Below are positions 1,473 to 62,112 of a DNA stretch of 64,000 nucleotides, piece by piece. Origin of the DNA: Chiloscyllium plagiosum (taxonomy: Eukaryota). The notes under the pieces were generated by a model. It was not told the DNA's origin. It made no database searches and saw nothing but the letters and a program-made list of their open reading frames with translations. The DNA lies in NCBI RefSeq assembly GCF_004010195.1, contig NC_057721.1, positions 34,516,931 through 34,580,930 of the forward strand, read 5' to 3'. Position 1 is the stretch's first letter, and each line of letters opens with the position of its first letter. The translations under genes were made by a program, and so were the position numbers.

Positions 1473-1580
1473 GGTGGAAATTTGAGATATAAACAGAAAG
1501 TGCTGGACAAACTGAGTAGGTCTATTAGTGGAGAGACAAGCAGAGTTAGTTTTCAAGTCCAGTCACCCTTCATCCGAGCT
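1473..1580 (-). mobile_element. PLE terminal stub (family B) with decayed hammerhead motif
   Basis: AACAGAAAGTGCTGG...CAGAGTTAG..TTTCAAGTCCAGTCACCCTTCATC matches the stubs at 49.6, 51.3 and 56.0 kb. Confidence 0.65.
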
Positions 1581-1744
1581 GTATATTGAGAATTTCACAT
1601 GACAAGAAGTTTACTTCCAAGCATTTGTATCACTTTATTTCATTACAACTTGTCATTTTAATATTGTACTTGCAATATTCCTCTTTATAGTTGAGAAACT
1701 TGATGGCATAAAAGCTCAATTGATAAAATAGAGTGGATACCTGA

Positions 1745-3592
1745 TGCATGGTAGGCTAGTTAGCAAGATTAGAACACATAGAATACAGGGGGAACTAGCC
1801 ATTTGGATACAGAACTAACTCGTAAGTAGAAGACAGAGGGTGGTGGAGGGTTGACAAGGAAGTCATACTGGAGGCCTATGATCAGCTGTGTGCCCCAAGG
1901 ATCGGTGCTGGGTCCACTGCCTATCGTCATTTATATAAATGATTTGGATGTGAACATGGGAGGTACAGTTAGTAAGTTTGCAGATGACGCCAAAATTGGA
2001 GGTGTAGTGGACAGAGAAGAAGGTTATCTCGGAGTCCAATAGAATTTTGATCAGATAGGCTGGTGGGCTGAGGAGTGGCAGTTGGAGTTTAATTTAGATA
2101 AATATAAAGTGCTGCATTTTTAAAACACAAATCAGAGCAGGATTTATTGTTATGAAGGTGTAGAGGTGCACTGTACCTTTAAGAGAATTGAAAAGCTAGC
2201 AAGGACTGAAAGCACAGAGTGTCCTGAGCAAGGTAACAATGTAATGCATGGTCAAAACAAATAGCAGCAGATGGGTTACCATGAAACAAAAACAAATCCA
2301 AATTCAGCCAATCAGTTTAAATTATATCCCAAGATGCCAAAATGAAATCAAATTTGAATTTCGTATTTTGATAATATTAAAACCAATGAAATGATCCATT
2401 GTTTTGGAGTATAAAACTGGACATGTTGAATAGTTAGAGGGAGAACTGCCAAAGACCAACAAATGTAGACAGCTAGTTGAAGTATTCTCTGAAAGGTACT
2501 TAGCTTATGGGGAGTTTGTGCAGCAGAACATCGAAGCCAACTGGAGAGAATCTACAGAGGAAAATCTACAAAGCTGACTGGTTTTGAAAGATGATTTTCT
2601 GTTTGTAAATCTTATTTGGGTTTTTTTTTATTGGACTAGTATTGTAGAGTGGGAGGTAAAAGATAGGTTTAAGAGAAAAGAGTTATAAATAATTGTTGGT
2701 TTTAATCTTCTCTGTTGAACTTAAAGAATAAAGTTGTTAATTTTTACTTTCAGTAGTGACCCCTGGGATAGCTCTTTGCCTCTTGAATTTTAACAGATTA
2801 CAGCATGGGGTACATTTTTCTGTGTTGCAGATTAAAATGAGCAGAAGGATTTACTCTGTGTCGTAACATGATACACTTTATGGTCAAGTTCTGGGGAATT
2901 TTGCTGAACAAAGACACCTTGGAATGGAGGTTTATAGTTGCTTGAAAATAGAGTCGCAGGTAGATAGAGTAGTGAAGAAGGCATTTGGTATGCTTGACTT
3001 TAATGGTCAGTGCATTGAGTATAGGAGTCGGGAGGTTAAAGGCATTGGTTAGGCAGCTTTTGGAATACTACATACAATTCTGGTCTCCCTGCTTTCGGAG
3101 AAGGATATTGTGAAACTTGAAAGGATTCAGAAAAGATTTATGAGGATGTTGTTAATGTTGGAAGGTTTGAGCTATAGGGAGAGGTTGAATAGATTGGGGC
3201 TATTTTCCCTCGATCATCAGAGACTGAGGGGGTAACCTTACAGAGGTTTATAAAATCAAGAGGGGCATGGATAGGATAAATAGACAAAGGTCCTTTCCCT
3301 GGGGTGGAGGAGTCCAGAACTAGAGAGCATAGGTTTAGGGTGAGTAGGGAAATATTTCAAAAGGACCTAAGGGGCAATGCTTTCATACAGAGGGTGGTGT
3401 GTGTAGGAATTGGTGGAGTCTGGTACAATTACAAAATTTAAAAGGTATCTGGATGGGTACATGAATAGAAAGGGTTTAGAGGGATATGGGCCAAATGCTG
3501 GCAAATGGGACGAGATTAATTTAGGATATCTAGTCAGCATGGATGGATGGGACTGAAGTGTCTGTTTCCGTGCTGTACATTTCTATGACTGA
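1745..3592 (+). mobile_element. CR1/HER1-type LINE, 5'-truncated, split by a solo LTR
   Basis: ORF 1851-2042 carries RT motifs VPQGSVLGP and FADD; the sequence resumes in register at 2869 and ends in a CTATGAC-type tail. Confidence 0.9.
2148..2868 (+). mobile_element. Solo LTR (Gypsy-like), 721 bp
   Basis: TGTTATGA...TCGTAACA inverted ends; 4-bp flanks TTAT/TGAT (1 mismatch); TATAAAA at ~2410 and AATAAA at ~2727; interrupts the CR1 cleanly. Confidence 0.8.
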
Positions 3593-5400: not shown

Positions 5401-5573
5401 AATTATGTCTGCTACCCCTCGCAGGATGAAGCCAACTAATGAAGTGTCACTGGATTCAAAATGTAACTCTGTTTTCTCCCAACAAGTACTTCCAAATATG
5501 TTGAAATTTGTTAGCAATTTCTCTTTTTGTGTGAAAGAGAAAATTGTGTCACTTCCTCTTTCAGAGCAGTGGA

Positions 5574-9213: not shown

Positions 9214-9547
9214 TAGAGTACTAAGGAACAAAGGGACAAATCCATAATTTAATTCCCTAAAATTTTCAGCATAGGATCATTAAGAAGGCATATGGGATGC
9301 TTGCCTTCATTAGTCAGTACTTTGAATGTGGGAGCAAGGGAGTCTCTTGATTAGGCCCCACATTTGTTAGGAATACCATGTACAATTGTGATACTGCACT
9401 ATTGGAAGGATGTGATTACATTGGAGAGATTGCAGAGGAGATTCACCAGGACGAAGCCTGGGATGAAAAGACTCAGTTATGAGGAGAGACTAGATAGACT
9501 GGGTTTATTTTCCCTCGATCAATGGAAGCTAAGGGGAATACAGAATG

Positions 9548-9758
9548 ACTTGGAGGTGCAGGTGTTGGACTGGGGTGGACAAAGTTAAAAATCACATGAC
9601 ACCAGGTTTATTTAGAAGCACTAGCTTTCGGAGCACCGCTCCTTTGTCGGGGGATTGTGATTCACATGACAGCCACCTGATGAAGGCGTGAGGCTCCAAA
9701 AGCTAGTGTTTCCAAATAAACTAGTTGGACTATAACTTGGGCTCGTGTGATTTTGAAT
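9548..9758. mobile_element. Fold-back PLE terminal stub (family C) with a hammerhead motif on each arm
   Basis: Inverted arms: AAAAATCAC...GAAGCACTAGCTTTCGGAGC versus CACCTGATGAAGG...GCTCCAAAAGCTAGTG...GTGATTTT. Confidence 0.75.
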
Positions 9759-9919
9759 TACAACAGGCATAGATAGAGTAGATAATGAGAATCTTTTCCC
9801 CATGGCAGACATGTCTAAAATCAGAGGGCATAAAATCAAAATGAGGTGACTTCAGGAAATAAATTTTCACCCAGAGGTAGTAGAAGTATAGAACTTGCTG
9901 CCTGAGAGGGTGGGGGAGC

Positions 9920-10012
9920 CAGGTCTAAGGAAGGGTCACTGGTCCCGAAACATTAACTCTGATTTCTCCCCAAATGCTGTCAGACTTGCTGAGCTTTTTC
10001 AGTTTTTTTTGG
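9920..10012 (+). mobile_element. PLE terminal stub (family B)
   Basis: CTAAGGAAGGGTCACTGGTCCCGAAACATTAACTC...AATGCTGTCAGACTTGCTGAG. Confidence 0.7.
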
Positions 10013-10647
10013 TTTATAATGATATTGACTGGGTGATAACTGTTTGCAAAAGCATCACAACTTTTCAGGGTTATCATTTGACAATTATATAACCAAATGA
10101 GAGAACCCAGAAAACCTCAATATAACAGGTTCTCTAAAAGACCCAACCCCAACATTGTAGCATACCACCGCTTTGAAGTGTCACCTTAGATTTTGTGCAT
10201 AATTTGTGGTATTCTCCAAAATGATACCTTGTTGTATTTGCACACTGGTATGTAGTACTTGGCAAGGGTTGTTTGCGTTTGTTTACTGCCACCAATTGCC
10301 CTTTTTGCTTTATTTTGCGTCTATTTCATGCTTAGCGGTAGAGGATTCACTTCCGTAGAGTGTCTGCAGAAAAGGCACTGTTCATTTTTTTAGATAATTT
10401 TATTTCATGTTGACAATAAATACAACTTCATTTGGTCAAGTGAAATTGCCTTAATTATGAAGTTGATACAGACACATCAGATCACTTCAAAACCTGGTGT
10501 AGAGTTCCTGGTGTCCATTCATTGTTTATGTGACATCAGTAGATTAGATGCAGCATAACTTTTTCCAGTAGGCTCCCAATTCTCTCTTTTTTTTGTCTAA
10601 TCAACCTATTCAGAAGTATTGAGAACACAGCGAATTGAGAACTGAGA

Positions 10648-10955: not shown

Positions 10956-11241
10956 AACTGTTCCCAAGAAGAAGGCAGGAAAATGTCCTAACGCATAATT
11001 GCTGGCACAAATTATACTGCACCTACAGCCAACTTAGTCGAGATTAATTTACTCAACCCTCCAGTGAACCAATCTATGGTCTTCAGCTACCACCAATAGA
11101 ACAGTGGTGGAACTAATCAACTAGTAGGTCTCAGTCAGACATTTGGAGATAATGAGGACTGTAGATGCTAAAGGGTCAGAATCGATAAAGTGTGGTGCTA
11201 AAAAAGACTCAGCAGGTCAGGTAGCATCTGAGGAGCAGGAG

Positions 11242-11275
11242 AATCGATATTTCAGGCATAACCCTTCATCAGGAC
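11242..11275 (-). ncRNA. Minimal hammerhead ribozyme motif (PLE family A)
   Basis: Reverse complement: TC CTGATGA A GGGT TAT GCCT GAAA TATC GATT. Confidence 0.55.
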
Positions 11276-11485
11276 TGGGGAAGGGGAAGAGAGCTGAGAA
11301 ATAAATAGGGATAGGGGTTTGGGGCTAGGGGAAAGGTAGGCGGGATGACGATAGATGGACGAAGGTAGGAGGTGACTGTGATAGGTCAGTGGGAAGGGTG
11401 GAGTCAATGGTAGGAAGGAAGATGGACAAATAAGTCAGGTCAAGAGGGCGGTGCCTATTTGGAGGGTTGGATCTGGAATATTGAT

Positions 11486-13397: not shown

Positions 13398-13399
13398 AC

Positions 13400-15114: not shown

Positions 15115-15763
15115 ATGTCTCAGCAGTTCGCACTGATGCCTCACAGTGGCAGGGTCGTTGGTTTGGGTGACTTGGGTGACTGTCTGTGTGAAGTTGCACA
15201 GCGAAAAAGTGAGGACTGCAGATGCTGGAGACCAGAATTTAGATCAGAGTGGTGCTGGAAAAGCACAGCAGGTCAGGCAGCATCCGACGAGCAGGAAAAT
15301 CGACGTTTCAGGCAAAAGCCCTTCATTAGGAATGGAGGCAGGGAGCCTCCAGGGTGGAGAGATAAATGGGAGGGGTGGTGGTGGTGGGGTTGGGGAGAAG
15401 GTAGCAAAGAGTACAATAGGTGAATGGGGGTGGGGATGGATGCGATAGTTCCACCACAGAACACACCAGATGGCCTCCTTCTTTAGTGATCGCAATTTCC
15501 CTTCCCACATAGTTGAAGATGCCCTCCAAATCATCTCATCCACATTCCGCACCTCTGCCCTCAAACTCCACCCCTCCAACCGTAACAAGGACAGAACCCC
15601 CCTGGTCCTCACCCTCCACCCTACCAACCTTCCCATTAACCACATCATCCGCCGACATTCCCACCACCTCCAAACGGACCCCACCACCAGAGATATATTT
15701 CCCTCGCCACCCCCTTTCCACTTTCCGCAAAGACTGTTCCCTCCGTGACTACTGGTCAGGTCC

Positions 15764-16267
15764 ATGCCCCTCAACAACCCACCCTCCAGTCCTGGCACCC
15801 TCCCCTGCCACTGCAGGAATTGCAAAACCTACACCCACACCTCTTCCCGTTCCACCATCCAAGGCCCCAAAGGAGCTTTCCCCACCCATCAAAGTTTCAC
15901 CTGCATATCCACCAATGTCATTTATTGTATCCGTTGCTCCCGATGCAGTCTCGTCTACGTTGGGGAGACTGGACACCTCCTAACAGAGCATTTCAGGAAA
16001 CATCTCCTGGACACCTGCACCAATCAACCCCACCGCCCCGTGGCCCAACATTTCAAATCCCCCTCCCACTCTGTCGAGAACATGCAGGTCCTGGGCCTTC
16101 TCCACCGCCGCTCCCTCACCACCCAACGCCTGGAGGAAGAACGCCTCATCTTCCACCTCGGAACACGTCAACCCCACGGCATCAATGTGAACTTCACCAG
16201 TTTCCTCATTTCCTCTCCCCCCACCTTACCCCAGTTCCAACCTTCCAGCTCAGCACTGTCCTCATGA
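15764..16267 (+). pseudogene. Uninterrupted PLE GIY-YIG endonuclease domain (fragment of the PLE ORF)
   Basis: PGTLPCHCRNCKTY Cys linker, then SFTCISTNVIYCIRCSRCSLVYVGETG...RLEEERLIFHLGTRQPHGIN; frameshifted from the upstream RT linker. Confidence 0.85.
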
Positions 16268-23414: not shown

Positions 23415-23599
23415 TACCTGGTTTTGTGCAAAGAGGCAGGATTATCTCATAATGTAGCAGTGACATAAATGATTGAATTTTCATTCAATTTTTGGGAGAG
23501 AGGAGTGAATCCATGATTTCTTTAAAGCTGAACTAAGGGCACCATTGAGGCTATGAAAGCAAAAGTGGCTAAAGTGAATTAGATAATTAGTCAAAAGAA

Positions 23600-23790
23600 A
23601 GTCAAAAATCACAAGGAATCAGGTTAGAGTCCAACACAAGCTTTCAGAATAATGCTCCTTCATCACTGCACCTGATAAAGGAGTGTCGCTCCGAAAGCTT
23701 CTGATTTCCAATAAACCTGTTGGACCCTAACCGGGTTTTGTGTGATTTTTGACTTTGTCCACCCCAGTCCAACACCAGAACTTCCACATC
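23600..23790. mobile_element. Fold-back PLE stub (family C) with 13-bp TSD
   Basis: Inverted arms around CACCTGATAAAGGAGTGTCGCTCCGAAAGCTT; flanks TTAGTCAAAAGAA (23587) and TTAGACAAAAGAA (23791). Confidence 0.8.
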
Positions 23791-26698: not shown

Positions 26699-28931
26699 TT
26701 CTTATACTATAAACAAATCTCATCTTCTTCAAAAAAAAGGACTGGATGTGAACCATTCAAGGGCAATGCAATTTAGGTGTCAGTAAATCTTGTCTAATGA
26801 ATGAGACTAGCAGTGAAAGATTACACCTGACACAACTTGGAGATTTTTACTTCTTCAGCACCTTTCCTCAGATTCATTTTTGGGAGGGGAGAAAGTACAA
26901 TGACCAGTAGGAATGTAAAAGGGTAATACCATTCTCTACTTGTCAATGAATAAAAGAACAGGATGAACATTTATCATTAATGTTTATAAAACAATGAGAA
27001 GGATCATCATTGGACCCAAGGTCAGCTCTAAATCAAAAATTCTTCATTATACTGACATTTTACACGAGAGAGAGAGACATTATCATAACCTATAATATTT
27101 CTATCTCTTCTGATAGCTTGTCCTCACTGAGATAAATATCCTCCTGATGATAATAACCAATGAAACTGCAGCAGAATTCTCTGCCTTCAAGCAACTGATC
27201 AACAGTAAAGGATGAAGAAGGCAGATAGTTACCCATCTTGTGGCAGGAACATTGAACACCAGCTTCAAGAGGGAGGTAAACCTTAGGTGAAGAATCTTAT
27301 GATACATTTTATGCTTTGCATTTAAATAGTGATGGTGAGGTGAGTCTTATGATGTCCAGTCCTTTCTGACTATGGGCAAATATTTTCCCATGATCCTCTG
27401 ATTTCCAGCTTATTAGTTATATACTGGAGCATCTGGGCGTGTTTCTCAGGCAATTGCCTGGTATGTGAAGCAGAAGATCTTTCAGCTACACACCTCAAGC
27501 ACCATATTTAAATCCCAGCTACACATCACTTCAGACACTGCTAGTCAGAGGCAGTGAACTAATGTGGTTCTCAAAAGTAACTATATCTCAGATGAAATGT
27601 AAGCAAGCTCACTACTTCCAGGACACGGATCTGAAGAAGCTGGTGGATGCAGTGATGGAGAGGAAGGCAGTCCTGTTTCTGGTTGATCACCAAAGGAAAC
27701 CAGGCCACCAGACCTATCCAGCCTGGACAGGAACAGCAGCACGGGTCAGTGCTATGTCCCAAGTCAGAAGAACACTCAGCAATGCTGCAAGAATATCAAT
27801 GATCTTCTGTGCTCCATAAGGGTATATGCTGCTATTTTCCCTCTGTTACCTCACACTCACAGCAACACTACTCCCTCCAATGCGGCCAACGCAAACACCT
27901 GTTACCAAGGCTCATGGACTACAGCTCTCACTATTGCATACTTCATGTCCACTCAATAGCTCTCACCCACCTCCTCATCCCAGACTATTAACCCTTCCTT
28001 CCCTTTGCATCTCCTACTCACTCACCTTATCACATCTCCTGCTCACGCATCACAACCAAGAGTTCTTGATCCACTTCCATCATGATCCTTTTGTCTCATT
28101 GTCAGTAAAACTGGCCCATCCTTGGACTCATGTCTCAACAGTATCCTGGCTGGCCAACATGTAATCACCCAATCATGGCCAATCCTGCACTGATATAGAA
28201 CGAGTCCCTTGACTTGCTTGTAACTATTACCCTGACTGATTGTAGTCTCCCTTCACCCCAATGAGGACATTTTCTCTTTGACTTTCATACATTTCTATTT
28301 GCGTGAAGCACATGCTATGTGTTTGCCATGTAAGCTGCTGGCACAAGCTGCAACTCTGACTTTGCTGTAGCAACATACCCAACCTCTATTTAACTGATAG
28401 CTTTACTTTTCAGTGCTGCCCACCATCACAAGCTGTCTACCTCTCCTCTGTGCTAAGAAGCAAATTATACCACAGAGGCTGGCAACCTCGAACTGAGCAC
28501 TTATTACCTTGTGAATTAAGAAACACAATGTGACCCACAGAGCAGTCTGTAACCAGTAAGTCAGTGAATGTGCATGAAGAAAGCAATGTGACCCAAACAG
28601 AGGCAAACAAGGGAATGTTATGCAAGCAGGCCTGAGGATGGCATGTGTTCATGCCAGCATCAAATAATTCTGCACAGATGCATAAGAAATGTAACTGTCC
28701 CTGTGTGAAAGGCACCTGGCAGACATATGCAATCCATAGTTATCTATTAGCTTTAAAGCAGAGCATCAAAGCCTTGGAGTGGTGACTGAGTTGGTCTGAG
28801 GATGCCTAGTTGTGGGTAAGAGGTTGCGGAGGCTGGTTTTCAATAAATATTAAGTGACAGTGTATATAAGAAGGGCAATGAATCATATCCACATTGAGAT
28901 TTTGGAGAACATTTATATCTCACGTGTGGAT

Positions 28932-31844: not shown

Positions 31845-32645
31845 AGCAAGGTAATTTGGATGCCAGTCAAATTCTGTGGATTTGGCAGCCTCTGTGTAGA
31901 GAGAAAGAGTTAACTTTATTGGGACCAGTCTGTCTTTTCTTCAGAATTTCAAAGTAAAGAGTCATATTGAACTCAAAAGGTAATTCTGTTTCTCTCTCCT
32001 GCTATGGACCAGGCCAGACCCCTCAGGAAGATAGCCCAGACCCTAACTTTTCTAGTCATTTTAAGCGGGTGTAAGGTGGATATCCTAGGAATGACACAGT
32101 TGGCACAACCACTCCATTTTAAACAAAACAGAATTTGTTTACACGTGAACAGAAGAAAACCAAATTTAGAATAAAAACTATTTGAAAACCTAACCAACAT
32201 GAAAATGCAACTTAATGATGTTGTTCCGAATGCTTGCAACATCCCATAAACACCCCCTTGGCAAAAAGCTAAACTCAAACACAGGTTCTTACAGGAGATA
32301 GATGTCAGAGAGAGAGAGAGGATCAGCATGGAACTGCTTCTTTGGGTCCCCAGCAGCTTCTCTGGGATCCCAGCGAAAACTTGACCATCAGCTGCAAGCA
32401 AAACAGCTTGCTCCAACCAAACCCTGAACTGGGAGAACTGGCTACTCCTCTTTCTTTGTACATGTGTTTTTAAAACGCACTTAAAAACTTTCTCAAGTGG
32501 AAATTTCCAGACATATCTGAACCTTGGCTTTTACAACCCCTTTTGACAAAACAAAACAAGGGCATTGTCACCTTGTTAAAGGAGCAGCATTGTCACACTC
32601 CAAAATTGCTGTCAGACTTGCTGACTTTCTCCAGCACTTTCTCTA
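31845..32645. mobile_element. Fold-back PLE stub (family B) split by a solo LTR
   Basis: GGCAGCCTCTGTG..GAGAGAAAGAGTTAAC...TCTTCAGAA, then GAGTCATATTGAACTCAAAA...TCTCTCC, resuming at 32598 with TGCTGTCAGACTTGCTGA. Confidence 0.65.
32000..32597 (-). mobile_element. Solo LTR (Gypsy-like), 598 bp
   Basis: TG...CA ends with a perfect 4-bp TSD CTCC (31996-31999 and 32598-32601); orientation inferred. Confidence 0.8.
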
Positions 32646-38200: not shown

Positions 38201-39121
38201 ACATCAAATACTGTCTTTTCTCCCACCCCATAATGTGAGCAGTTAGAAGGACTGCTTCTGGTATTTACTGCATTCTTCAATCTTTTCAGGGTGCACATTA
38301 AAGTGAATGGGCTTGGACTGAGTTTGTCAAAACAGCAAGATTTCTGATCTAATTTCTACCACGTTGCCAAGACTCTCAGCAGCCATTTTTTGAAGTTCTA
38401 GAATTCTCCCTTTGGATATGATCATTGAGTAACTCTCTTTTTTGTTAATCAAATTCCTACTTTTTTGGTGTTAGAAATTGGATTTCTCATTTTTGGACAT
38501 GCTAATTAGGATTTGAGACCTGTCCATGCTGGATCCAAATGAAGTGAACAGGATGGAAAATCGATTATTGTTTACTCCTTAACAAGTTTTGTGGTGGATT
38601 CCTGGCTACATAGTCAGTGGTATTTGAGCACCGCAGGAGGACATGTAGAGTTTGAACTATCTCTGTGCTCCATGCAACTTTCCATTTTTAAATGTGTTAC
38701 TAAAAGATAGACGCATTAATTCACAGTCAGCTCATGGAAAAATTAATATGAAAGAGTCAAGCAAGATGTGACACCAAGCAAAGGTTCAGACTTCCCACTT
38801 CAGTACTGCTATCCTGGAGGCAACTATTAGACAAGTGAAATGTTTTGTTGTTTGCTTGGAGTGGTAGTGGTTTTATATTGCCTCTCTAATGAGGTTGTAG
38901 TAGTCTGCATATATTTTAACCATGACAAACTATTTACGCATTCAAGGATCCACACAAGCTCATGGTGTCACTTTGAGGTCTGTCTCCAGACTCTCTTGTA
39001 GTCATGTGAGCTTACATCATCTATAATTATGAGATGCTTACATTGCTCAAAGTATTGTCTTCATATAGGATTGCTGGGATATGTGCTAACCATTCATTCT
39101 GACAATACCTTCTAATCAGGA

Positions 39122-39181
39122 TTAAGTTACAAATCACACAACACCAGGTTATAGTCCAACAGGTTTAATTGGAAGCATTAG
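39122..39181 (-). mobile_element. 60-bp PLE family C stub with perfect 13-bp TSD
   Basis: AATCACACAACACCAGGTTATAGTCCAACAGGTTTAATTGGAAGCATTAG flanked by CTTCTAATCAGGA at 39109 and 39182. Confidence 0.85.
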
Positions 39182-39644
39182 CTTCTAATCAGGAGAAATT
39201 CTTTGTCTCTGTTAGGAGCTTCTCTTGTCCCTTCCAGTTTTCTCTGTTGGTGACAAGTGTTTTGCTACTGAGCATGTGTATAGTTTTATGTCTGCTATCA
39301 ACTCTAACTTGTTTTTCAGTCTGTTCAAATGGTATTCTCCACAAGTTATTGTTTGACAGTTCCCTTGAAAGTTCCCAGTGGGTGAATTGCATCTCATCAA
39401 ATGCAGTGTGAAACATTGAATACAAGGTCGCACATTGTAATTTTGTTTGTCTGAAGAGGAGAAACGTTTGTTCATGATCTGTTTTAATCTTAAACCTTAA
39501 TCTTAAAGCTCCAAAACGTAATTGGAGAACTTCTTGCAGATCCATATTACCCAGACATTTTGTTTAAACTCAATAGTGCTGTATCATTTTCTTTTCTATT
39601 AGTGAATTTGAAGCACTCAAACAACAGCCTCCATATTGCAGCTA

Positions 39645-39830
39645 ATAGCAAAATATTTTGGCTGCTGGAAATCTGAAATAAAAGCAGAAAATGCTGGAGA
39701 AACTCAGCAGGTCAGCCAGTATTTTTGAAGAGAGAAATAGAGTTATTACAACATTAATTCTTTTCTATCTCCACAGATGCTGTTAGACCTGTTGCGTATG
39801 TTCAGCATTTTCTGTTACATTCAATTTTTC
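39645..39830. mobile_element. Fold-back PLE stub (family B) inside the Gypsy relic
   Basis: GCAGAAAATGCTGGAGAAACTCAGCAGGTC and its inverted partner GATGCTGTTAGACCTG...CAGCATTTTCTG. Confidence 0.75.
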
Positions 39831-42029: not shown

Positions 42030-43297
42030 ATGCACACAGTAGACAGGCAGGAGGCTGGATGAATACAGGAAGCAAGGCAGCATCAGGAGGGGCAAAAGTT
42101 GACTTTTCAGGTGTAACTCTTCTTCAGGACTTGGGGTGGGTGTAAGGGGAGCAGCAGATAAAGGGGGTGGCGGGCAGTGTGGTGAAGTGGGGATAGGAGA
42201 AGACAAGTAGAGGGCATGGCCTGGTTGGTCAATGGGAGGAATGAATTTGGTTGGTGGCATGGAACAGCAGAAGGGATGGGGAGGGGCTCGGAAAGGAGTT
42301 GGGGGATGGGAAGGGACGTTATTTAAAATTAGATAACTCAACCTTGAGTCCTCCAGGTTGAAGATAAGATGTTGTTCCTCCAATTTGTACTGTAGTTGTT
42401 TTGGCAATGGAGAAGGCCAAGGATGGTCATGTTGGAAAGGGTGTGGGAAGGAGAAATGGGCAGTGACTGGGAGGTGTGGTCGGTCCCAGCGGGCCTGGCT
42501 TAGATGCTTGGTAAATTGTTCCCTAAGTTTACATTCGGACTCCCCAATGTAGGGGAGACCACATCAGGAGCACCTGATGCAGTAAACCCGGTTGGAAGAG
42601 AGTTAGGTGAACCTCTATCTCACTTCGAAGGACTGTTTGGGGCCCCGGATGAGGAGGTTGGTATACGGGCAGGTTTTAAATCTTTTCTGGTTATAGGAGA
42701 AGGTACTTTGGGGTGCAGTGGTGGAAGTGGTGTGAACCAAGAACTGTCAGAGGGAATGGTGCTTGTGGAAGACATTGAGGGGTGGGGAGAGGAAGATGTT
42801 CTTGGTCGTGGTATCTGTTTAGAGTTGGTGAAATTGTTTGAGGATGATGCGTTGGATACAGAGACTGGTGAGGTGGTAGGTGAGGACAAGGGGAACTCTG
42901 TCTTTATTGCGTTGGGAGGGGAGGGGGTTTAGAGTGGTGGAACAGGGAATGGAAGTGGTGCAGCAGAGAGCTGCCTGGATGGTGGAAGGAGGAAAAGTAT
43001 GTTGCTCAAAACAACTGGACATCTGGGATGCTCGTGAGTGGAATGTCTCCTCGTCTGAGCAGATGTGGCGGAGGCAGAAGAATTGGGAGAATGGGATGGA
43101 GTTCTTGCAGCATACTGGGTGGGGGAAAGTGTAGTCTAGGTAGTTATGGGAGTCTGTGGGTTGTAGTAGATGTCTGTCCGGAGACTGTCGCTGGAGATTT
43201 AAATGGAGAGGTCAAGAAAGAGGAGGGAGGTGTCTGAGATGGACCAAGTGAATTTGAGGGTAGGGTGGAAATTGTGTGCAAAGTCGATTAACTGCTC
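42030..43297 (-). mobile_element. Penelope-like element (family A-related), 5'-truncated
   Basis: HNFHPTLKFTWSISDTSLLFLDLSI, RNKDRVPLVLTYH, YKLEEQHLIFNL; the terminus carries rc CCTGAAGAAGAGTTACACCTGAAAAGTC at 42101-42128. Confidence 0.9.
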
Positions 43298-48655: not shown

Positions 48656-49591
48656 CTTTATTCTCTGAATATCTTATGTCATAGAATCTTCTAAGGGTGG
48701 CCTGCCTTAACATCCTTTATCATATAATTGCCAGGTTAAGCCCCCCTTCTCTGTGTAGTTCGCAGGAAAAGTGATAGCTGTCCCCATATCTATGCAAGGC
48801 GCTACTCTATCCTCACCAACTGGGTGTGGTAACAGCTGAAATGTTTCAGCAACTCCCCACAATATTTCCAAAAAACATTTTAAGCAAGTCAAAAATATCC
48901 CAGTTGCAACTTATTGTTTGATCTTTTAAATAGCCCAAACCAGGACCCATTTTGCTTCATTTTGTTTGCTTTTTCCGCCTCAGATGTAATTAACAAAGAT
49001 GCTTCCTCCACATGAAAGAAAACATACAAATTTGTTTCACCAGAATGGTTCAAAGGGTAGAAAATATCATCCTATTTTCACTGGACTGAAATTGGATTAG
49101 TGACATGATGTAGACAATGCACTTCTTATCCAATCTTGCAGAGTTGTTATTGCTTCAAATCCACCAATAACAATTTTGTCTCAGGGAGCCAGCCATATTC
49201 ATTCTTTTATTTCAGTTCAGTTGCAAATGAAATAGATAAAAACCATGTAAGGTTGGTATCACATATTATTTTTGTGAGAAATGTCCAACAAGAATGTAAT
49301 GAAAATTTGTTTTGTTGAAAATAATCAATATTGCAAATACCACATAAATCACCATTATGAAGAGATGTGATACAAAAATTATTTTTTAAAAGATCATATA
49401 GACCAATATACATATATCTTGAACCTTTAAACAAAGGACATTTTGTGAAGGAGAAGGTACAGGCACAATCATATCAACTTTGCAACTGAAAGGAACAGGT
49501 GGCCTGGATGAATTCTTACTCTGGAAAACATTCAGAAAACATGGCCTAGTTGATGAGTTGATATATTTTTTAACTCAGAAAATTTGAGAAG

Positions 49592-49730
49592 AAAATCAGA
49601 AATTTCTGGGGAAACTCAGGTCCAGCAGCATCTGTGGAGAGGAAGCAGAGTTAACATTTCAAGCCCAGTGACCCTTCATCAGATTCTTCTGTTTCTAATT
49701 TTCAGCATCTGCAGCTCTTTGTTTATTTTA
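49592..49730. mobile_element. Fold-back PLE stub (family B) with an intact hammerhead core on the minus strand
   Basis: rc 49649-49685: AAT CTGATGA A GGGTC ACTG GGCTT GAAA TGTT AACT. Confidence 0.75.
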
Positions 49731-49868: not shown

Positions 49869-50092
49869 AAAAGCAAATTACTGCGGATGCTGGAATCTGA
49901 AACCAAAAGGGAAAATTCTGGAAAATCTCAGCAGGTCTGGCAGCATCTGTAAGGAGGGAAAAGAGCTAACATTTTGAGTCTAACTGACCCTTTGTCAAAG
50001 CTTTGACAAAGGGTCAGTTAGACTCAAAATGTCAGCTCTTTTTTCTCCTTACAGATGCTACCAGATCTGCTGAGATTTTCCAGCATTTTCTC
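49869..50092. mobile_element. Fold-back PLE stub (family B), ~100-bp arms, no loop, 8-bp TSD
   Basis: Axis between 50000 and 50001; TTTTGGAT at 49861 and 50093. Confidence 0.85.
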
Positions 50093-50100
50093 TTTTGGAT

Positions 50101-51312: not shown

Positions 51313-51477
51313 GTAACAAAACTAGAAATTGCTGGAAAATTTCAGCATGTCTGGCAGCATCTGTGGAGAGAAATCAAAGTTAACATTTCAGGTCCAGTGA
51401 CCCTTCTTGAAAACAGTTCTGCTGAGATTTTTGTTTTTGTTTCTGACTTCGAGCATCCTCCGTTTTGTCAGTTTTTC
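51313..51477. mobile_element. Fold-back PLE stub (family B)
   Basis: AGAAATTGCTGGAAAA..CAGCA..TCTGGCAGCATCTGTGGAGAG...GTCCAGTGACCCTTC with a short inverted arm. Confidence 0.75.
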
Positions 51478-52486: not shown

Positions 52487-52832
52487 TTTTAGCGAGTTTT
52501 GAGAAGATTTGTAGCTCAGGTTGCGGTTCTGGATGTAGGTTTGCTCGTTGGGCTGGAAGGTTCATTTCCAGATGTTTCGTCACCCTACTAGGTAATATCT
52601 TCAGTTGGACTCCAGGCGAAACACTGTTGATAATTCCTGCTTTCTATTTATATGTTTGGGTTTCTTTGGCTTGAAAATGACATCACCAACCCAAAGAAAC
52701 CCAAACATATAAATAGAAAGCAGGAATTATCAACAGTACTTCGCTTGGAGGCCCACTAACGATGTTACTTAATAGGATGACAAAACGTCTGGAAATGAAC
52801 ATTCCAGCTCTACGAGCAAACCTACATCCAGA
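52487..52832. mobile_element. Fold-back PLE stub (family D-related), ~150-bp arms, 10-bp TSD, hammerhead motif on each arm
   Basis: ACTTCAACAG at 52477 and 52833; rc 52568-52606 reads CTGAAGA T ATTACC TAGTAG GGTGAC GAAA CATC TG. Confidence 0.85.
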
Positions 52833-55220
52833 ACTTCAACAGATTGTTACCAGCGTCTCCCACAGCAAACCCTTCCATCACTCCACCCTAACCACCTCTC
52901 CACCCCATCACCAATTCCCTCTCTCAGTTAGAATTGACTTTGAAGTTAGTTATCAGAATTATAAACTGTTTACAGTACAGGTTATTCAGCCCACTGGGTC
53001 CCCACCCAATGCTTTATGCCCTAGCCCTGTATTTTTTTTCTGTCCATGAATAAATATAAGTAAGCAAGTGCATGGAATCCACCACACCCACCCCACTATG
53101 TCAGCTGTCTAAAGATCACCAAAAGAAATCAGATAAACAGCCACTCTATGATTGCTAGTAAATCAGGATGAAACCAACTTGAATAAAACTGTCTCACTGT
53201 GGTTCCAGTAACCACAGCTTACCACTGTGTTGGGCTGACTAGAAGTGTGCATGTATAACAAAACATATTGTACTGAATATTAAATACACTGAATTGAGCA
53301 AGATGTAAATATTGTAAATCAATCACATTATTCAAAATGATTTCAAGTTAACTTTACAGTATTTCAAATTTTAAAAATGACTACCAAGTGTCAGAGGTTT
53401 GTAGTACATTCCTCAGTTTAGGTTTAGCAATGAGATAAACTACCACCTAAAGGAAATTAGGTTACTGAAAATGAATGTATAAAATGTTCTATCACATGTA
53501 ACTTCTGTCTGCAGAATTTCCTGTCAAAGTATGCTGTTTTCCTTTGTGACATTTTGGCATGTGATGCAATCAGATAGGTTATCAAGCCATCGTTGTCATT
53601 CTTCTTTTCTGTGAAAATACAAAGTTTGACTTTCAATTTTTATGCTATACTTGCTATTCACAGACTATTCAATATCACTATATTTCTGCCTCTTACAAAT
53701 AAAACACAAACTAGAACATGATTGGAGTGAAATCACAGCTTCCTTTAATTATAACATTTATCACTGTATTAAAAACGTTGGATATCAGAATTTCAGATGA
53801 TCCTCAACCTCTTCAGAGCAATTTTATCACAAGAACTGGTTTTATCTGACTTTGTTATGAACAGTGTTTGAAGCTAACCTTTGTTACTGCAGCTGTATCA
53901 TAATATTGCTCAGATTATTAGTCAATGGATTATGACAATATCTGAGATAATGCTACATATTTTAACATACAAACATATGGACTAAAAGGTCTTAATTTTC
54001 AACTAGTTTTTCCGGTGTAAAGCTAACATTATACATCTTTCTCCTGTTACAGTACCTCATATTTTTTATCTCCATGGAGAACATTAATTTGTTAATAGCT
54101 TAATTATTATTCTGTCTTAACTAATGGGACAATTTTATTAATTAATTAAGAATACCAAGATAAAAATTTACAATAAAGCTATTTGAGTACTTCCATCAGT
54201 CAACGGAGTGGTCAGAACCTTTTGTAAAACTGGGGCATTACATTTCAGTTTGCACAAAAGTGAAACAAGCTTGCTCAAGGTTGTTTTTTGTTTTAATAAT
54301 CTCCATTTCAGTCTAAGTAATTAAAATGAAACTTTCACAGGGATATAAAGTGGGCACTGGCAAATTTATCTCCTTTTACACAAACCATCACATATTCTCT
54401 CTCATTTTAGTCAATGACCCAGATTTGTGTGGAGGAAACTTCAAAAATAGCAGGCTGGATCCGAATCCAGAATTCCTGCCTCCAATCCCATTTCCCAATT
54501 TTGTTTGACAGTCACTATTCATATGTAATAGTTGTTGGCTCCATTACAAGGTGAGCATTTCAATTCTCATTCAACTTTGATAGAGCCAGAGCCATTCTGT
54601 TAAATACACATATTTCATAGCTGGGGAGCCATTAACCACAAGGGATCACCTATCTTGAGGTGGGAACTAAAGAAAAGACTCTCAACATCCCCTTTATAGA
54701 ACATTGACCTGATTACCTTCTCATAAACCTGTCAATCAAAGCCATTGATTGTATCAATTACAAAAGAAACTTTAATTAATGTCAGGCATATTAAACTTGT
54801 GCGAAGAAACACATCGGTACGAGAAGAACACTTTAAAAAAAGATTATGAGGAGAAATGCTAAAGTCATCAGTCTCCCATGGCAACAATATACAAGTTGTT
54901 TCAATGCCTCTTACAGGACTCAGCTCATTAGTCATTGCTGGATCAAAGCCCAGCATTCATAATTTGACTATTTTGCAGTTGTGTCAATGATGTGAGCTGA
55001 ACAAACTGCCAAATGTTTAATTTTCAGCTTTTTCTGGGCTCTTGGAGGAGCAGTTTATTTTCTAACGGAGAATATTTTCAATGTCTCCTTGCTTGTTATG
55101 GAAGTTTCAATGATATATTAATGAGTTGTCAGACCTGCCAGGAAGTGATTGATTCTGTAAGAAGTGATTATGAAAACATTGGATGCATGTGGGCATGGAA
55201 GCGGTATATTTGCATAGACT

Positions 55221-55949: not shown

Positions 55950-56172
55950 AAAAAAACAAAGAACTGCAGATGCTCTGCAAATCAGAAACAAAAATAGAAA
56001 TTGCTTGAAAAGCTCAGCAGATCTGGCAGCATCTGTGAAGAAGAAGCAGAGTTAATATTTCGGGTCCAGTGACCTTCTTCAAAACTGAAGATCACTGGAT
56101 CCAAAACGTTAACCTTACTTTCTGTCCAGAGATGCTGCCAGATTTGCTGAGTTTACCCAGCAATTTCTGTTA
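55950..56172. mobile_element. Fold-back PLE stub (family B)
   Basis: Arms meet at ~56085: GGGTCCAGTGACCTTCTTCAAAA|CTGAAGATCACTGGATCCAAAACGTTAAC. Confidence 0.8.
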
Positions 56173-56469
56173 TCATTTGGGATCATTACACATAAAATAA
56201 TTGCAAATCAATAAATGATAGACATATTTTACCAAACTTGCCTCATTAATTACATATTCTACCCCAATGGTGGCCCTATTGACCAATCTAGCCCTGTCTT
56301 ACCATTAACCATTTCTCAAAATAACATGCCATACAACAGGTATCTACTGAAAAACTGGCACACCGGCACCCATGTTGTACTTAAAAGGCTGTTGTACTTT
56401 CAAGCAAGCACTAACCACAGCTGCCTGGTCCTTTCCCTGACAAATGTAGTATGAATTTACCAGAAACGG

Positions 56470-58000
56470 GAAAGATGATGCAGTAATTCTGTAACAGGGC
56501 CTGGAGATCCCAATGGTGCAGAGAATTACATGTCACCAGATCCTGGCAGCTTGGTCTGAGCTCGAAATCTTTCTCAGAATGGTCTCCATGGGAAGGAGGA
56601 ATGGCCAGCAGTGCCACAAGTAGGTCAATGACCTCCCTGGATGCTGCCTGACCTGCTGCGCTTTTCCAGCAACACATTTCCAGCTCTGATCTCCAGCATC
56701 TGCAGACCTCACTTTCTCCTCAATGACCTCCCTGCTCTACCAGGGTAAATGCCACACTTTTTTTAACTTATACCTCACACTCACTCTGTTACTGATCCAC
56801 CAATGTTCATGCTCTAGCACGCTCACCATTGCCTGTAACATTTTCCCTCACTCACTCTCAACCCCTCCACCACACTATGAACTCTGCACAACCACTCCAC
56901 TGCCTACTCACTGTCTTGCAACACCTTACCACATTTCCACCAACTCTAGCAGAAATTCCATTCACATTCAGCTTGTTCAATTCTCCTCTTTCTCTCCTTC
57001 CAGCAGAAGGTGGCCTGTAGAAAGATAGATAAGGCAAGTACAGATGGAGGGTATCTGACTATCTGAAGAAGACCAGGATTGCACTTGCAAGGATATCGAG
57101 ACCACTGGCTGTAATGTCTTCTTTCTCTTTTGTTTTGCAGGTATGCAGTGGGATGTTCACTGTGCATTGATGTCCAGCTATGTCAGAAGCCACCACCTTG
57201 ATGTTTTAGAGTGAGAATATACTGAAATCTCGGATGAAGCATCAGTAAGGCTGCCTCCTCCACCTTCCACAAGCTCAGATTATGACACCCTGATTGGAAT
57301 GTAAGCCTTTGGAAGAGTGGGAGCATAATCTGGTGAACACCTCTCAGTGACAGCTCCATAGCTTGCTGAGGAAGAAACGTCCCAGGTTTCTGACAATCAG
57401 AGGTCTGCCAGAGACCAGGTACTGTTCAGTCCCAGGCAGGAGAGGTTCCCGTGGTATTGGCAATCAGGGACTTCATCCAAATGGACAGGGAGATACAGGA
57501 GCAGCTTGCAGATATGTTGGAGGCAATGGCCCTTTTTATCCTGAAAAGCTGCAAGACAGCAGCTACATGCATCAACTGCAATCCATCACCCCAGTAATTG
57601 GTTCTCAAGACTGAAGGCATGGCAATAGGGAAACAAGGAAGCTGGCAAATATTCCTGGTGCCCTTTCTTCACAAGGAGATTGGGTGGTACCAGGAGGCAA
57701 CAAATGGAGGAACCAGACACAGATTCCCTAGAAGTCTCCTCTCAGGCTACTTCAGAGTGGCTGGGTACTCCATCTCCATCCTGCCTGCACCCCTCTGACC
57801 TGTGGAAGTTCAAGCCAAGGTGGGTCCACTTGCCTCTGGCAGGACAACTCAGGATGTGATGCACTAATACCCCTGGGGTCACCCAACCAATCCTCCTGAG
57901 TCAACAGGCTGCATTGCAGGAAAGGTTCCCTCCACTCCATCTGCTGAACCTTTCAACACAGTAGGAAGGAGAAAAATAAAGAAACCTATTGAGGACATGT
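56470..58000 (+). mobile_element. PIF/Harbinger relic: three-exon Myb/SANT pseudogene
   Basis: Exon 1 QILAAWSELEIFLRMVSMGRRNGQQCHK*VNDL with donor GTAAAT at ~56744; acceptor at 57003 then QKVACRKIDKASTDGG; acceptor at 57140; basic VGRRKIKK end at ~57961-57984. Confidence 0.7.
56640..56719 (+). mobile_element. 80-bp PLE family A 3' stub with 15-bp TSD, inside the Myb exon
   Basis: GATGCTGCCTGACCTGCTG...CAGACCTCACTTTCTCC flanked by TCAATGACCTCCCTG at 56625 and 56720. Confidence 0.85.
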
Positions 58001-58865: not shown

Positions 58866-60920
58866 GAACATAGAAACTCCTAGAAAGTGTTTCTATAAAT
58901 ATGTGAAAGAAAATATACAGGAGGCCTGGTTAGTGAGTTTGCAAATGATACCAAAATAGGGGGCGTAGTGGCCAGGGAAGAGGATTACCCCAGAGTACAA
59001 TGGGATCTGGATCAGATGGGCCAATGGGCAGAGGAGTGGCAGATGGAGTTTAATTTAGATAAATGCGATGTGCTGCATTTTGGAAAGGCAAATAAGGACA
59101 GGATGTATGCAGTTAATGTCATGCACCTGGGGAGCAACGACAAACAAAGAGGCCCAGGGTGCAGGTGCATAATTCCTTGAAAGTGGAGTTGCAGGTGTAT
59201 AGGGTGGTGAGGAAGTCATTTGGCATGTTGGTCAGAACAATGAGTATAGGAGTTGGAATTTCATGTTGCGGCTGTACAGGACATTGGTAAGGCCACGTTT
59301 AGAATACTGCATCGAATTCTGGTCACCTTTATATAGGAAAGATGTTAAACTTGAGGTGTAGAAGAGATTTCAAAGGATTTCATTGGGATTGGAGGGTTTG
59401 AGCTATAGGGAGAGATTGAATAGGCTGGGACATTTTTCCCTGGAGCATCAGAGGCTGAAGGGTGACCTTACAGGGATTTATAAAATCATAAGGAGAATGG
59501 ATAGGGTGAATAGTCAAGGTCTTTTTCCTAAGGTGTGGCAGTTCAAAACTAAAGGGCACAGGTTTAAGGTTAGAGGGGAAAGCTTTAAAAGGACCTGAGG
59601 GGGATCTTTTCACGCAGAGGGTGATGTGTGTATGGAGCGAGCTACCAGAGGAAGCGGTGAATGTGGGAAAATTACAACATTTAAAAGCAAATGGATGAGT
59701 ATATGAACAGGAAGGGTTTAGAGGGATATGGGCCAAATGCTGGCAAATGAGACTAGGTGAGATTGGGATGTCTGGTTGACTGAGTTGGATGCAAGGATCT
59801 GTTTCCATGCTGGATAACTCTATAACTCTATTAGTAAAGAAAAAAATGTAAGTCCTTTACAGTCAGAAACTTGAGAAATTATAATGGAGGAAACAAACAA
59901 ATGGTGGAAACAAACTCACACTTTGGTTCAATCTTCACAAAACAGGAAAAACTTACCGCAGGAAACCATTGGTAATATGAGAGGGCTGAATTAAAGGCAA
60001 TCAGTATCAGTAAGAAAATAGTGCTGGAGAAATTAATGAGATTAAAGGCTGACAAACTACCAGGGTCTGATCATTTACAATCTAGAGCATGAAAGAGAGT
60101 GGCCCTGGGAATATTGGATGCATTGGTGGTTATCTTCCAGAATTCTTTAGATTATGGAGGTGTTCCTCCAGACTGGAGCATTGTAAATGTAACCCCACTA
60201 TTCAAAAAGGAGAGAAAGAAATATCAGAGATTGCAGAATTGTTAGCCAAACATCAGTAGTGGAGAAAACGCTGGAGTCTATTATAAAAGACGTGATAACA
60301 GAACATTTGGAAAACATTACAGGATTGAACAAAGCCAGCCTACCTGAGTTTTTTGAAGAAATAACTAGTAGAATAGATAAGGAAGAACCAGTGGATGTGG
60401 TATATTGGATTTTCAGAAGATTTTTGATAAGGTCCCTCATAAGAGTGGGCAAAGTTAAAGCATTATGTATATGGGTGTTAAATTGGCTTGGATTGAGAAT
60501 TGGGTGTCAATCAGGAAATAGAAAGGGAATTTTGTTTCTAAGCAGCCGGCAGAGACTAGTAGGGTACCTCAATGTTCAGTTCTTGGGCCTTAGCTATTTA
60601 TAATTTATATAAATGACTTAGCTGAGGGAATAAAGTACAATATTTCCATATTTGCTGACAACAGAAAATTGGGTGGCATTATGAATTATGAGGTGGATTC
60701 AAGGAAGGATACAAAATGATTTCGGGAAGGTGAGTGAATGGGGAAACACATGGCAGATACAGTACAATGTGGCTAAATGTGAAACTATACACTTCATGTG
60801 AAAAAAATGAATGTCAGACTAATTTCAAAATGGTGCTGTATTGGGAACTGTGAAGGTACAAAGGTACCTGGGTGTCTTTGTACTCCAATCAATGAGCATA
60901 GAAAGGTAGATGCAGCAAGC
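58866..60920 (+). mobile_element. Older CR1 ORF2 fragment hosting a younger CR1
   Basis: KCFYKYVK at ~58885, resuming at 59831; ORF 60259 reads KTLESIIKDVITEHLE...EFFEEITSRIDKEEPVDVVY. Confidence 0.8.
58920..59830 (+). mobile_element. CR1/HER1-type LINE 3' part
   Basis: FANDTKIGG, QWAEEWQMEFNLDKCDVLHFG, LSYRERLNRLG; tail ACTCTATAACTCTA. Confidence 0.9.
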
Positions 60921-62112
60921 ACCTTCACCTAGCCTGTCTCTGACTTGTCCCTTCCCTTCTTTAACACATGTATTCCATTTCTGGGGATTGGCTGTCTATC
61001 AATATCCCTGACAAACTCAGCAATTTGACTACTTTTCCTTATCTCAAGCTTTCTGTGTGTCCATCATTCCATTTTCCCTGTTTCTCTGTCTCCATCGCAT
61101 CTGTGCCTCTGATATGTCCTCCTTTTCTCTCAACCAAAACTTCTCCTCAGATGTACTTGAGATGATCATCAGCCATGTCTGAACCGTTTCCTGCAGTTCT
61201 GTCTTCATTTCATGTCCTCTTTCTCAGAAGAAGGATTCCCTTTGTCCTTACTTTCCACACCATCAGCTACTGCATTCAGAGGATCATCCTCCATCATTTC
61301 TTTTGCCTCCAGCAAGATGTTTCCACTAAACACATTTATCCTTCCCCTTCTTTGTCATCATTCCACTGGAACTGTTCCTTCGATGACACCAAGGACCACT
61401 CCACTGACACTCAATATCTCCTCATACCTGCATGGCAGCTTCCCATGCAATTGCAAAAGCTGTATCCTTCCACCCACCTTGACCATTACATTCTCCTTCC
61501 TCGCTGTCCAAGACCAAAAATATACCTTCCAGAAAAACAACGATTTAATTGCACATCTTTCAATTTAGTCTGCTGTATTCAATGCTCACAACACAGTCTC
61601 CTTTCCATTAGTGAGGCCAAACTCAGACTGTGTGACTGCTTTGTGTTCATTGTTCTGTTTACTTCTGCTAGGTCATAAGAATGACCCTGACTTTCCATTT
61701 CAATACACCATTTTACTTCTGTCCAAGGTCTGCTGCAGTATTCCAGTGAAACCATATGCAAGCTGAAGAAATAGTAGTTCATTTTCCATTTAGGTACTTT
61801 ACAGCCTTCAGGGTTCAAAGTTAAGTTTAAGAACTTCAGGCGATAAACACTGTCTTCTGTCTTGAATACAGCCCTCCCCCATGTCTTGTTCCCAACAGAA
61901 TTGACTCATTTTCTACTATTTGCATCTACAATTTACATCTGTTCTACATCTATATTGTTCGTCTACTATCATTAGCATTTCCTTTGTCTTTTGCTCTGGG
62001 CATCCTCACCATATGTTCCACTTACTACTATGCTCCCAAAAAAATCATTTTCCAGGTCTTTGCAGTTTTGAATAAGGGTCATACCAGGCTTGAACCATTA
62101 ACTCTGTTTCTC
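60921..62112 (+). mobile_element. Decayed Penelope-like element ending in a family B terminus
   Basis: RRIPFVLTFH...IQRIILHHF, HGSFPCNCKSC, FNCTSFNLVCCIQCSQHSLLSISE (GIY-YIG); end GAATAAGGGTCAT...GGCTTGAACCATTAACTCTGTTTCTCT. Confidence 0.8.

Follow-up and report, generated by a model that had tools for sequence, protein, structure and literature searches.

Minimal hammerhead ribozymes were described in the pseudo-LTRs of metazoan PLEs in 2014 and are known from the Neptune and Poseidon elements of fishes; no cartilaginous fish is named among their hosts in the abstract, Results or Discussion of that study (Cervera and De la Peña 2014, PMC4209133). The published motifs are type I hammerheads without a stem III, palindromic at 15.1-16.1, with an extra base between positions 9 and 10.1 and a G10.1-C11.1 pair, and they form several families per genome, whose members are mostly single and truncated and in some cases paired on opposite strands (PMC4209133). 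The copies reported here, from the shark Chiloscyllium plagiosum, share all of these features. They also resemble PAc, the Poseidon element of Anolis carolinensis, in which the hammerhead lies at the junction of repeat and ORF, the tail arises from two internal RT starts, unprocessed RNA mainly serves as template and no RNA ends occur at the cut (Frangieh et al. 2024, PMC11167929). In the parts of that report on which we draw, neither a transcription start nor a poly(A) site nor a 5' pile-up is described; here, such features are read from genomic copies and RNA reads. The Penelope elements of Adineta vaga and Drosophila virilis likewise have a promoter within the pseudo-LTR (with a putative TATA box and Inr in A. 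vaga), inverted 5' arms, a 30-40-bp tail and target-site duplications; however, the D. virilis promoter is TATA-less, unlike those described below (PMC3846280, PMC2377424). The palindromes of these elements were interpreted as products of antisense self-priming, and "no obvious mechanism" was seen for pseudo-LTR regeneration (PMC3846280, PMC2377424). Type I hammerheads in very high copy number (126,247 in axolotl) are also found in non-LTR retrozymes; the latter, however, are organised as tandem repeats, those of axolotl having canonical motifs and circular RNAs, whereas the shark copies are dispersed, solo or head-to-head, and minimal (PMC7229834, bioRxiv 10.64898/2026.07.22.740005). One chondrichthyan was sampled in the retrozyme preprint (bioRxiv 10.64898/2026.07.22.740005). 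Head-to-tail hammerhead units of the retrozyme type were not found among the copies of our window, all of which are solo or head-to-head.

The window comprises 64,000 nt, for which a first-pass annotation had proposed about 20 hammerhead motifs from four PLE families (A to D). The nhmmer profiles built from genomic copies gave 27 matches in the window (A 5, B 13, C 5, D 4), of which 22 span the hammerhead core, and none in the reversed window. All 14 positions cited in that annotation lie inside a hammerhead-like motif of the family and strand claimed. The copy placed near 62105 is present but very degenerate; it was missed by the family profiles and recovered by BLAST with an E value of 0.027. 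The copies are probably decayed minimal type I hammerheads in PLE terminal repeats, many of them likely short cDNAs of the uncut RNA 5' end. The features are as follows:

1486..1581, minus: family B terminus, decayed core (family profile, E 4.6e-12)
5437..5533, plus: family B terminus, decayed core (family profile)
9566..9654, minus: family C inverted arm, broken core (family profile)
9673..9761, plus: family C terminus whose core begins at 9677; G12A, cut predicted after 9705, AATAAA at 9715-9720 (family profile)
9920..10016, plus: family B terminus, G5A (family profile)
11187..11276, minus: older A-type terminus, both boxes and palindromic tetramer kept (family profile); Neptune-type endonuclease remnant upstream
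15231..15334, minus: family A inverted arm, G5A (family profile)
15749..16267, plus: Neptune-type Cys-rich linker and GIY-YIG frame, 172 aa
16435..16498, plus: family A terminus with its core from 16440 and both boxes retained (family profile)
23596..23665, minus: family C inverted arm (family profile)
23669..23771, plus: family C terminus, core from 23672, G8A, AATAAA at 23710-23715
28903..31045, both strands: family D Penelope/Poseidon remnant made of two inverted arms of about 1 kb, which contain RT and endonuclease fragments and bear hammerheads at both outer ends (28903-29013, minus; 30958-31045, plus) (family profile)
31861..31947, minus: family B terminus, heavy decay (family profile, E 4.6e-5)
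32596..32644, plus: family B tail alone, without core (family profile)
39118..39184, minus: family C tail alone, with target-site duplication (family profile)
39672..39816, both strands: family B tail-only palindrome (family profile)
42053..42131, minus: older A-type terminus, boxes kept, stems decayed (family profile); Neptune-type endonuclease remnant upstream
49590..49684, minus: family B terminus with a weak stem II and both boxes retained (family profile)
49896..50100, both strands: family B head-to-head palindrome, both cores broken (family profile)
51313..51408, minus: family B terminus, broken core (family profile)
52498..52843, both strands: inverted pair of family D copies; the one on the minus strand (52498-52608) keeps its boxes, the one on the plus strand (52750-52843) is broken (family profile)
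55982..56180, both strands: family B head-to-head palindrome (family profile)
56634..56693, plus: family A tail alone, first base about 11 nt past the predicted cut, 13-bp target-site duplication (family profile)
62074..62110, plus: very degenerate B-type motif (BLAST); endonuclease-like remnant upstream, 61166-61678

A generic descriptor, which demands both catalytic boxes, a stem II of at least 4 bp and the UH, matched the window four times, against a mean of 0.017 (maximum 1) in 60 first-order Markov simulations. The Rfam hammerhead scan of the window returned none, neither at gathering score nor at E values up to 10. The Rfam miRNA matches in the window turned out to be the palindromes, and no tRNA gene was detected there.

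The exact genomic matches have the CUGANGA and GAAA boxes, the A15.1-U16.1 pair and the H17 of minimal type I hammerheads. Stem II consists of 4, 5, 5 and 6 bp in A, B, C and D, with the G10.1-C11.1 pair and one extra 5' base, and stem III is a palindromic tetramer, ACGT in A, B and D and AGCT in C, exactly as first read. The four termini had been called otherwise dissimilar, which does not apply to A and B, whose tails align. Compensatory stems were borne out: pairing is maintained between families and, in D, between subfamilies, the third stem-I pair of D being C-G in 38, G-C in nine and U-A in eight of 78 copies. The A stem I given as ATTC/GATT has a U.U mismatch as its third pair, and four full pairs are found in one A subfamily only; with 3-4 bp, the shark stem I differs from the published minimal hammerheads (PMC4209133). 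Stem I is retained in 136 of 197 sampled exact matches (A 67/96, B 36/55, C 26/36, D 7/10). In family B, the base preceding the predicted cut is U, which corrects the first reading. Among the variants listed in the read layouts, those within the motif fall at loop-II positions. Per-position conservation of the sampled matches was set aside as evidence because the anchors preselect the core. In cofold predictions, the active dimer with its palindromic duplex is not the minimum-energy fold.

That the motif is a DNA promoter element or a protein-binding hairpin rather than a ribozyme would fit the missing Rfam match in the window, its place directly behind the putative start and the weak stem I of most A subfamilies. 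However, families whose flanks are unrelated have in common all catalytic positions, the G10.1-C11.1 pair and a palindromic tetramer, stem I shows covariation in D, and the homologous PAc motif cleaves and is rescued by C3G/G8C (PMC11167929). A non-ribozyme role is thus very improbable, and the identity of the motifs as minimal hammerheads is close to certain.

The PLE origin of all four families was confirmed, as RT and/or GIY-YIG coding sequence adjoins the motif in genomic copies of each. For family A, this context is provided by locus L002 and by the frame at 15749-16267, which belongs to a broken element ending in the 16440 hammerhead; the PF01541 match of this frame (E 0.017) is below the cut-off, that of the sister copy L002 (E 7.3e-5) above it. 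Family D coding sequence lies at 28880-31060 of the window and in L116 (RVT_1, E 1.7e-10). In L182, an ORF is enclosed by two family C repeats 2517 bp apart, and L183 contains a GIY-YIG fragment. Family B is represented by L231, L213 and L132, with endonuclease-side remnants only and a PLE protein match upstream in 5/55 loci; L133/L134, considered as a family B tandem, was ruled out, there being no PLE protein match upstream. The order of RT and C-terminal GIY-YIG endonuclease was assembled from fragments, of which four of nine have a Pfam match, two of them above the cut-off. Pseudo-LTRs, an inverted 5' arm, a 30-40-bp tail and target-site duplications are all present in these PLE copies. A Cys-rich linker between RT and endonuclease is present in Neptune and lacking in Poseidon (PMC8557442); in the shark it is seen in A and B, partly in C, and not in D. 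Judged by this linker, A, B and C appear to be Neptune-like ends and D a Penelope/Poseidon end, with C the least certain.

The window copies are fossils. None of the 22 core-bearing copies has the intact family pattern, and both catalytic boxes are retained in six (11272, 16440, 29007, 42127, 49682 and 52604), among which only 11272 has also kept the palindromic tetramer; in the 16440 copy, the stem III palindrome is gone through CpG decay. Decay at CpG sites, as suggested earlier, is common, with a CpG-type change in 19 of the 22 copies, a score in which about five copies with indels were read out of register. The very large genomic reservoir that had been predicted was found: 112,957 exact matches to the four core-plus-stem-II patterns (A 93,494, C 17,608, D 1,489, B 366), against none for the controls, the B and C patterns and samples being small or biased toward intact cores. 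Decayed copies are estimated by extrapolation at about 0.7 million. Published counts for the class are about 2,000 in Schistosoma mansoni, 4,000 in coelacanth and, as the largest that we found, about 9,000 in Xenopus tropicalis, obtained by different search methods (Cervera and De la Peña 2014, PMC4209133); the kind of motif is thus known, its scale was not.

The ends of the copies bear on how they were made. In A, in B and in some of the C copies, 5' ends accumulate 0-10 nt ahead of the core (93/150 in A, 47/58 in B and 15/45 in C lie within 10 nt of it), and family D has no such pile-up (1/17). In a blind-chosen 568 kb plus the window, 33 of 157 A sites begin at -8 to 0 and two at the cut site; a search for a further 5'-end peak at the cut revealed none, several apparent cases being internal deletions or arms. 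Sequencing depth changes about fourfold at the first stem-I base in both DNA contigs and RNA reads. Target-site duplications of at least 9 bp flank 15 of 49 short solo A copies, and the 3' ends of these copies lie at +60-65 (six) or +96-101 (eight), two ends about 37 nt apart. The pile-up could also reflect pausing or drop-off of the RT at the folded hammerhead, sharpened by microhomology to ATT targets, and would then be uninformative on the transcription start. Junctions often have 1-4 nt in common with the target, the PAc endonuclease favours ATT (PMC11167929) and D is without a pile-up, all of which suits such pausing; however, the ATT directly past the cut site attracts no peak, TATAAA lies 30 nt upstream of the start in B and C, and the start (-8 in C, -4 in A) tracks the promoter rather than the stem. 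Pausing is therefore a possible but rather unlikely explanation. Family A has only a weak TATA-like box, and only part of A a poly(A) signal, which, like the missing pile-up in D, speaks against copies as cDNAs of the uncut RNA 5' end.

The base before the start was considered as a trace of the cap. A first sample had G in 14 of 17 cases, but a non-templated cap G was weakened by larger samples and by target-site analysis: solo A copies have 21 G vs 16 A (p 0.036), and the G lies within the target-site duplication in five of nine junctions without extra bases and is itself an extra base in only two of 15. That G is mostly target-derived again agrees with RT pausing. In family C, 78 of 100 bases are G, inseparable from inverted arms. 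A cap-derived G is thus weakly supported. The idea that the junction is a splice acceptor, as it is in D. virilis, was discarded, since the 21 solo G junctions comprise eight AG and 11 TG.

Family C RNA is polyadenylated about 30 nt past the predicted cut, with sense-biased poly(A) tails at L187:2193 and 2196 (325 and 407 of 2,678 reads), and the DNA copies end 23-64 nt beyond these sites. The reads, which may come from host transcripts carrying insertions, run across the predicted cut without a dip, and none ends there. RNA starts did not accumulate at any position either, which a poly(A) single-cell library would be unable to display in any case. Since a cleaved C 3' product of about 30 nt plus tail would be lost, uncut reads are compatible with cleavage. 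It was proposed that hammerheads cut tandem precursors and that the RNA usually serves as template in cut or circular form (Cervera and De la Peña 2014), for which the direct tandem repeats of L182 and the retention of the motif across four families would speak. The RNA reads that pass the cut site argue against this, as does the lack of a 5'-end excess at the cut (nine positions around it have 11 main or solo sites, the 18 around the core start 136), and PAc employs unprocessed RNA in vitro (PMC11167929); cleavage and ligation as the usual route are improbable. Inverted arms and short copies might instead stem from self-priming on an antisense template made from a bidirectional promoter (Arkhipova et al. 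2013, PMC3846280). An inverted arm adjoins 53 of 93 short A copies and antisense reads are present, but solo copies with target-site duplications share the same start, and family C RNA is about 9:1 sense, with the sense strand polyadenylated. Self-priming is also an improbable source of these copies.

For the preferred origin as short cDNAs of the uncut RNA 5' end, transcription would begin 4-8 nt before the hammerhead core, and the RT would begin inside the RNA about 55-100 nt past the cut, as for anole PAc in vitro, and continue to the RNA 5' end. The resulting product of 93-130 nt may be inserted alone, be folded back into an inverted arm, or transfer to the 3' repeat to give longer copies. 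Start, internal RT start, run to the 5' end and product fates together have about an even chance of being correct. Intact motifs, by analogy with the literature, may cleave slowly, as dimers or aided by an element protein.

In retroviral LTRs, U3 contains the promoter, R extends from the start to the poly(A) site and U5 from there to the RT start, and a short minus-strand strong-stop cDNA is made. The 5' pile-up, the TATA spacing and the family C poly(A) site fit such a layout with strong-stop-like cDNA copies. PLEs differ in having neither tRNA primer nor integrase, the target DNA cut by GIY-YIG acting as primer, and the analogy is our inference. With a likelihood somewhat short of even, we propose that vertebrate PLE termini act like retroviral LTRs, combining a TATA/Inr start, hammerhead and poly(A) site. 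The RT, starting further inside, would make a strong-stop cDNA up to the cap, whose jump to the 3' repeat would regenerate the pseudo-LTR; the hammerhead, filling the repeated segment, may take the cap off as a slow switch gated by dimer formation or protein. We found no published report of these motifs in sharks and no strong-stop reading for PLEs, although subscription papers, Repbase/Dfam entries or supplements may contain one. Intact minimal hammerhead cores exceed the largest published count that we found for the class more than tenfold, and Rfam overlooks the window copies. Junction and RNA data now give exact positions to a putative start, a poly(A) site and two putative RT starts, so that pseudo-LTR regeneration and the role of PLE hammerheads become testable. 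If the LTR-like reading is true, the cores of this genome, 100,000 of them intact and about 0.7 million decayed, would constitute a fossil record of the strong-stop step.

The first-pass annotation named 14 positions of the window, and the described minimal hammerhead motif is present at all of them. Profiles built from genomic copies of the four families (149 of A, 59 of B, 59 of C and 28 of D) yielded 27 matches in the window, 22 of them spanning the core, and none in the reversed window. A generic hammerhead descriptor matched four times (0.017 expected), and an Rfam search of the window found no hammerhead. Decay had been described as frequent at CpG sites, and CpG-type changes indeed occur in 19 of the 22 core-spanning copies; the window, from a genome 3.56 Gb in size, has a CpG observed/expected ratio of 0.19. 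None of these copies retains the intact family pattern and six retain both catalytic boxes; the window's motif copies are fossils. The termini, which had been called dissimilar, are so for C and D, neither of which aligns to A or B, but not for A and B, whose tails align with each other. The window also holds other repeats:

10647-10952, 16528-16758, 17682-18018, 45053-45616, 50691-51015: tRNA-like SINE copies with a LINE-like tail
1959-2147, 3129-3549, 9434-9536, 58920-59791: related repeat fragments
6702-6946: five ~38-nt units of a short, degenerate repeat

We take the SINE to be of the shark HE1 type, and the related fragments are presumably 3' ends of CR1-type LINEs. One SINE copy truncates an A tail at 16498.

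Reverse transcriptase (RT) and/or endonuclease sequence accompanies motifs of A, B, C and D, in keeping with the PLE origin proposed for them. The A motif at 16440 terminates a broken element in which a Cys-rich linker and a GIY-YIG frame are found, the D motifs of the window close two inverted arms holding RT and endonuclease fragments, and Neptune-type endonuclease remnants lie upstream of the B motif at three loci. For C, one genomic locus (L182) shows a repeat-ORF-repeat arrangement across 2517 bp with RT motifs, and another (L183) a GIY-YIG fragment. A Pfam search of PLE protein fragments matched four of nine, two above the cut-off. By the linker criterion outlined in PMC8557442, A and B are provisionally classed as Neptune-type, C, with less certainty, is probably Neptune-type, and D is provisionally assigned to Penelope/Poseidon. 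At L182:1500-3900, the C element is flanked by two direct repeats, its ORF starts near the tail end and the endonuclease is deleted. In the window, upstream of a degenerate motif at 62074, the open frame at 61166-61678 shows a Cys pattern resembling that of an endonuclease.

The reservoir suspected to be very large is so: patterns that require an exact core, stem II and UH but leave stem I free match 93,494 times for A, 17,608 for C, 1,489 for D and 366 for B, and every control gave 0. Stem I is retained in 136 of 197 sampled exact matches, so that about 80,000 would be complete. A blind sample of 568,063 bases contained 12 exact matches and 117 core-spanning profile matches (control 0), the latter extrapolating to ~0.7 million genome-wide. 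Published counts for the minimal class, as summarized in PMC4209133, reach ~9,000. In the axolotl, 126,247 motifs are reported (PMC7229834; bioRxiv 10.64898/2026.07.22.740005); these, however, are canonical motifs in retrozymes, whereas the shark PLE copies carry minimal hammerheads.

Stem II comprises four pairs in A, five in B, five in C and six in D; it includes the G10.1-C11.1 pair and carries a single additional base on its 5' side. Either ACGT or AGCT serves as the palindromic tetramer. Stem I opens with a C-G pair in families A and C, with U-A in B and with A-U in D. Among 78 D copies, the third pair is C-G in 38, G-C in 9 and U-A in 8, which represents two independent changes, not 55. 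The claimed compensation in stem I stands between families and within D; most A subfamilies carry a U.U mismatch at this third position. That the motif serves a non-catalytic role is highly improbable. In dimer cofolding, the palindromic duplex is not at the predicted minimum, which is in line with the low activity described for such motifs (PMC4209133) and the protein dependence indicated for the hammerhead of PAc, the Poseidon element of Anolis carolinensis (PMC11167929). Genome-wide, family B has its predicted cut after U and a palindrome that extends to six bases, and this may impede folding into the active form. The family is old: in 568 kb, profile matches to its core number 25 and exact matches 0. 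A further subfamily, related to D but distinct in its upstream sequence and with GCA/TGC as stem I (L026, L078, L134, L202, L256, L316, L336, L347), is absent from the window.

Many copies begin just before the core. Counted without 30 loci per family picked by upstream or palindromic sequence, in samples requiring intact cores, element sequence breaks off no more than 10 nt from the core in 93/150 A, 47/58 B, 15/45 C and 1/17 D copies. At the first stem-I base, depth rises about fourfold in public DNA contigs and RNA reads, and a non-element base directly precedes the start in 11,483 A and 1,937 C matches genome-wide. We propose that transcription would start 4-8 nt before the core, that RT would start inside the RNA and run off at the 5' end of the uncut transcript, and that the product would then be inserted, folded back or moved by strand transfer. 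RT pausing behind the 5' pile-up is a possible, though doubtful, alternative. Anchored at the tail, in the blind sample plus window, A copies start at -8..0 in 33/157 and at the predicted cut in 2/157, while 81 begin past +60, many being split alignments; cleavage and ligation of hammerhead RNA is unlikely to account for the ends. An inverted arm is present in 53 of the 93 A copies, and antisense self-priming, as sketched in PMC3846280, seems a slightly poorer candidate still. At L175:1529, an A-type inverted arm is fused to a C-type hammerhead, which suggests template switching between families. Target-site duplications flank 15 of 49 short solo A copies, whose 3' ends lie at +60-65 or +96-101, and C copies have two 3' ends 37 nt apart; both agree with the tail and two RT starts described for PAc (PMC11167929).

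TATAAA lies 30 nt upstream of the start in C and B, A has a weak TATA-like box only, and in D, which shows no 5'-end pile-up, the TATA box lies 48 nt upstream of the core. The C reads of one single-cell poly(A) run are ~9:1 sense, and 325 and 407 of 2,678 reads have poly(A) at 29 and 32 nt, respectively, past the predicted cut; these reads may be host transcripts. Genomic C copies extend past this site and were thus not primed at that poly(A) tail. Read depth does not dip at the predicted cut, where any cleaved product would escape detection by its small size. Among the first 100 matches listed for each family, counted by eye, the base before the start is G in 63 and A in 37 for A, and G in 78, A in 9 and T in 13 for C; solo A copies have 21 G versus 16 A (p 0.036). 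G lies within the target-site duplication in 5/9 junctions without extra bases and is an extra base in 2/15, and microhomology with the target is common. Support for a cap-derived G is weak; annealing of cap-templated C or target preference may explain the excess.

The minimal class was first described in 2014 (PMC4209133); our literature search found neither a report of it from sharks nor a reading of PLE copies as strong-stop cDNAs. Regeneration of pseudo-LTRs has been described as lacking an obvious mechanism (PMC2377424). Taken together, the shark motifs are real, their scale is unusual, and they offer a testable mechanistic clue.
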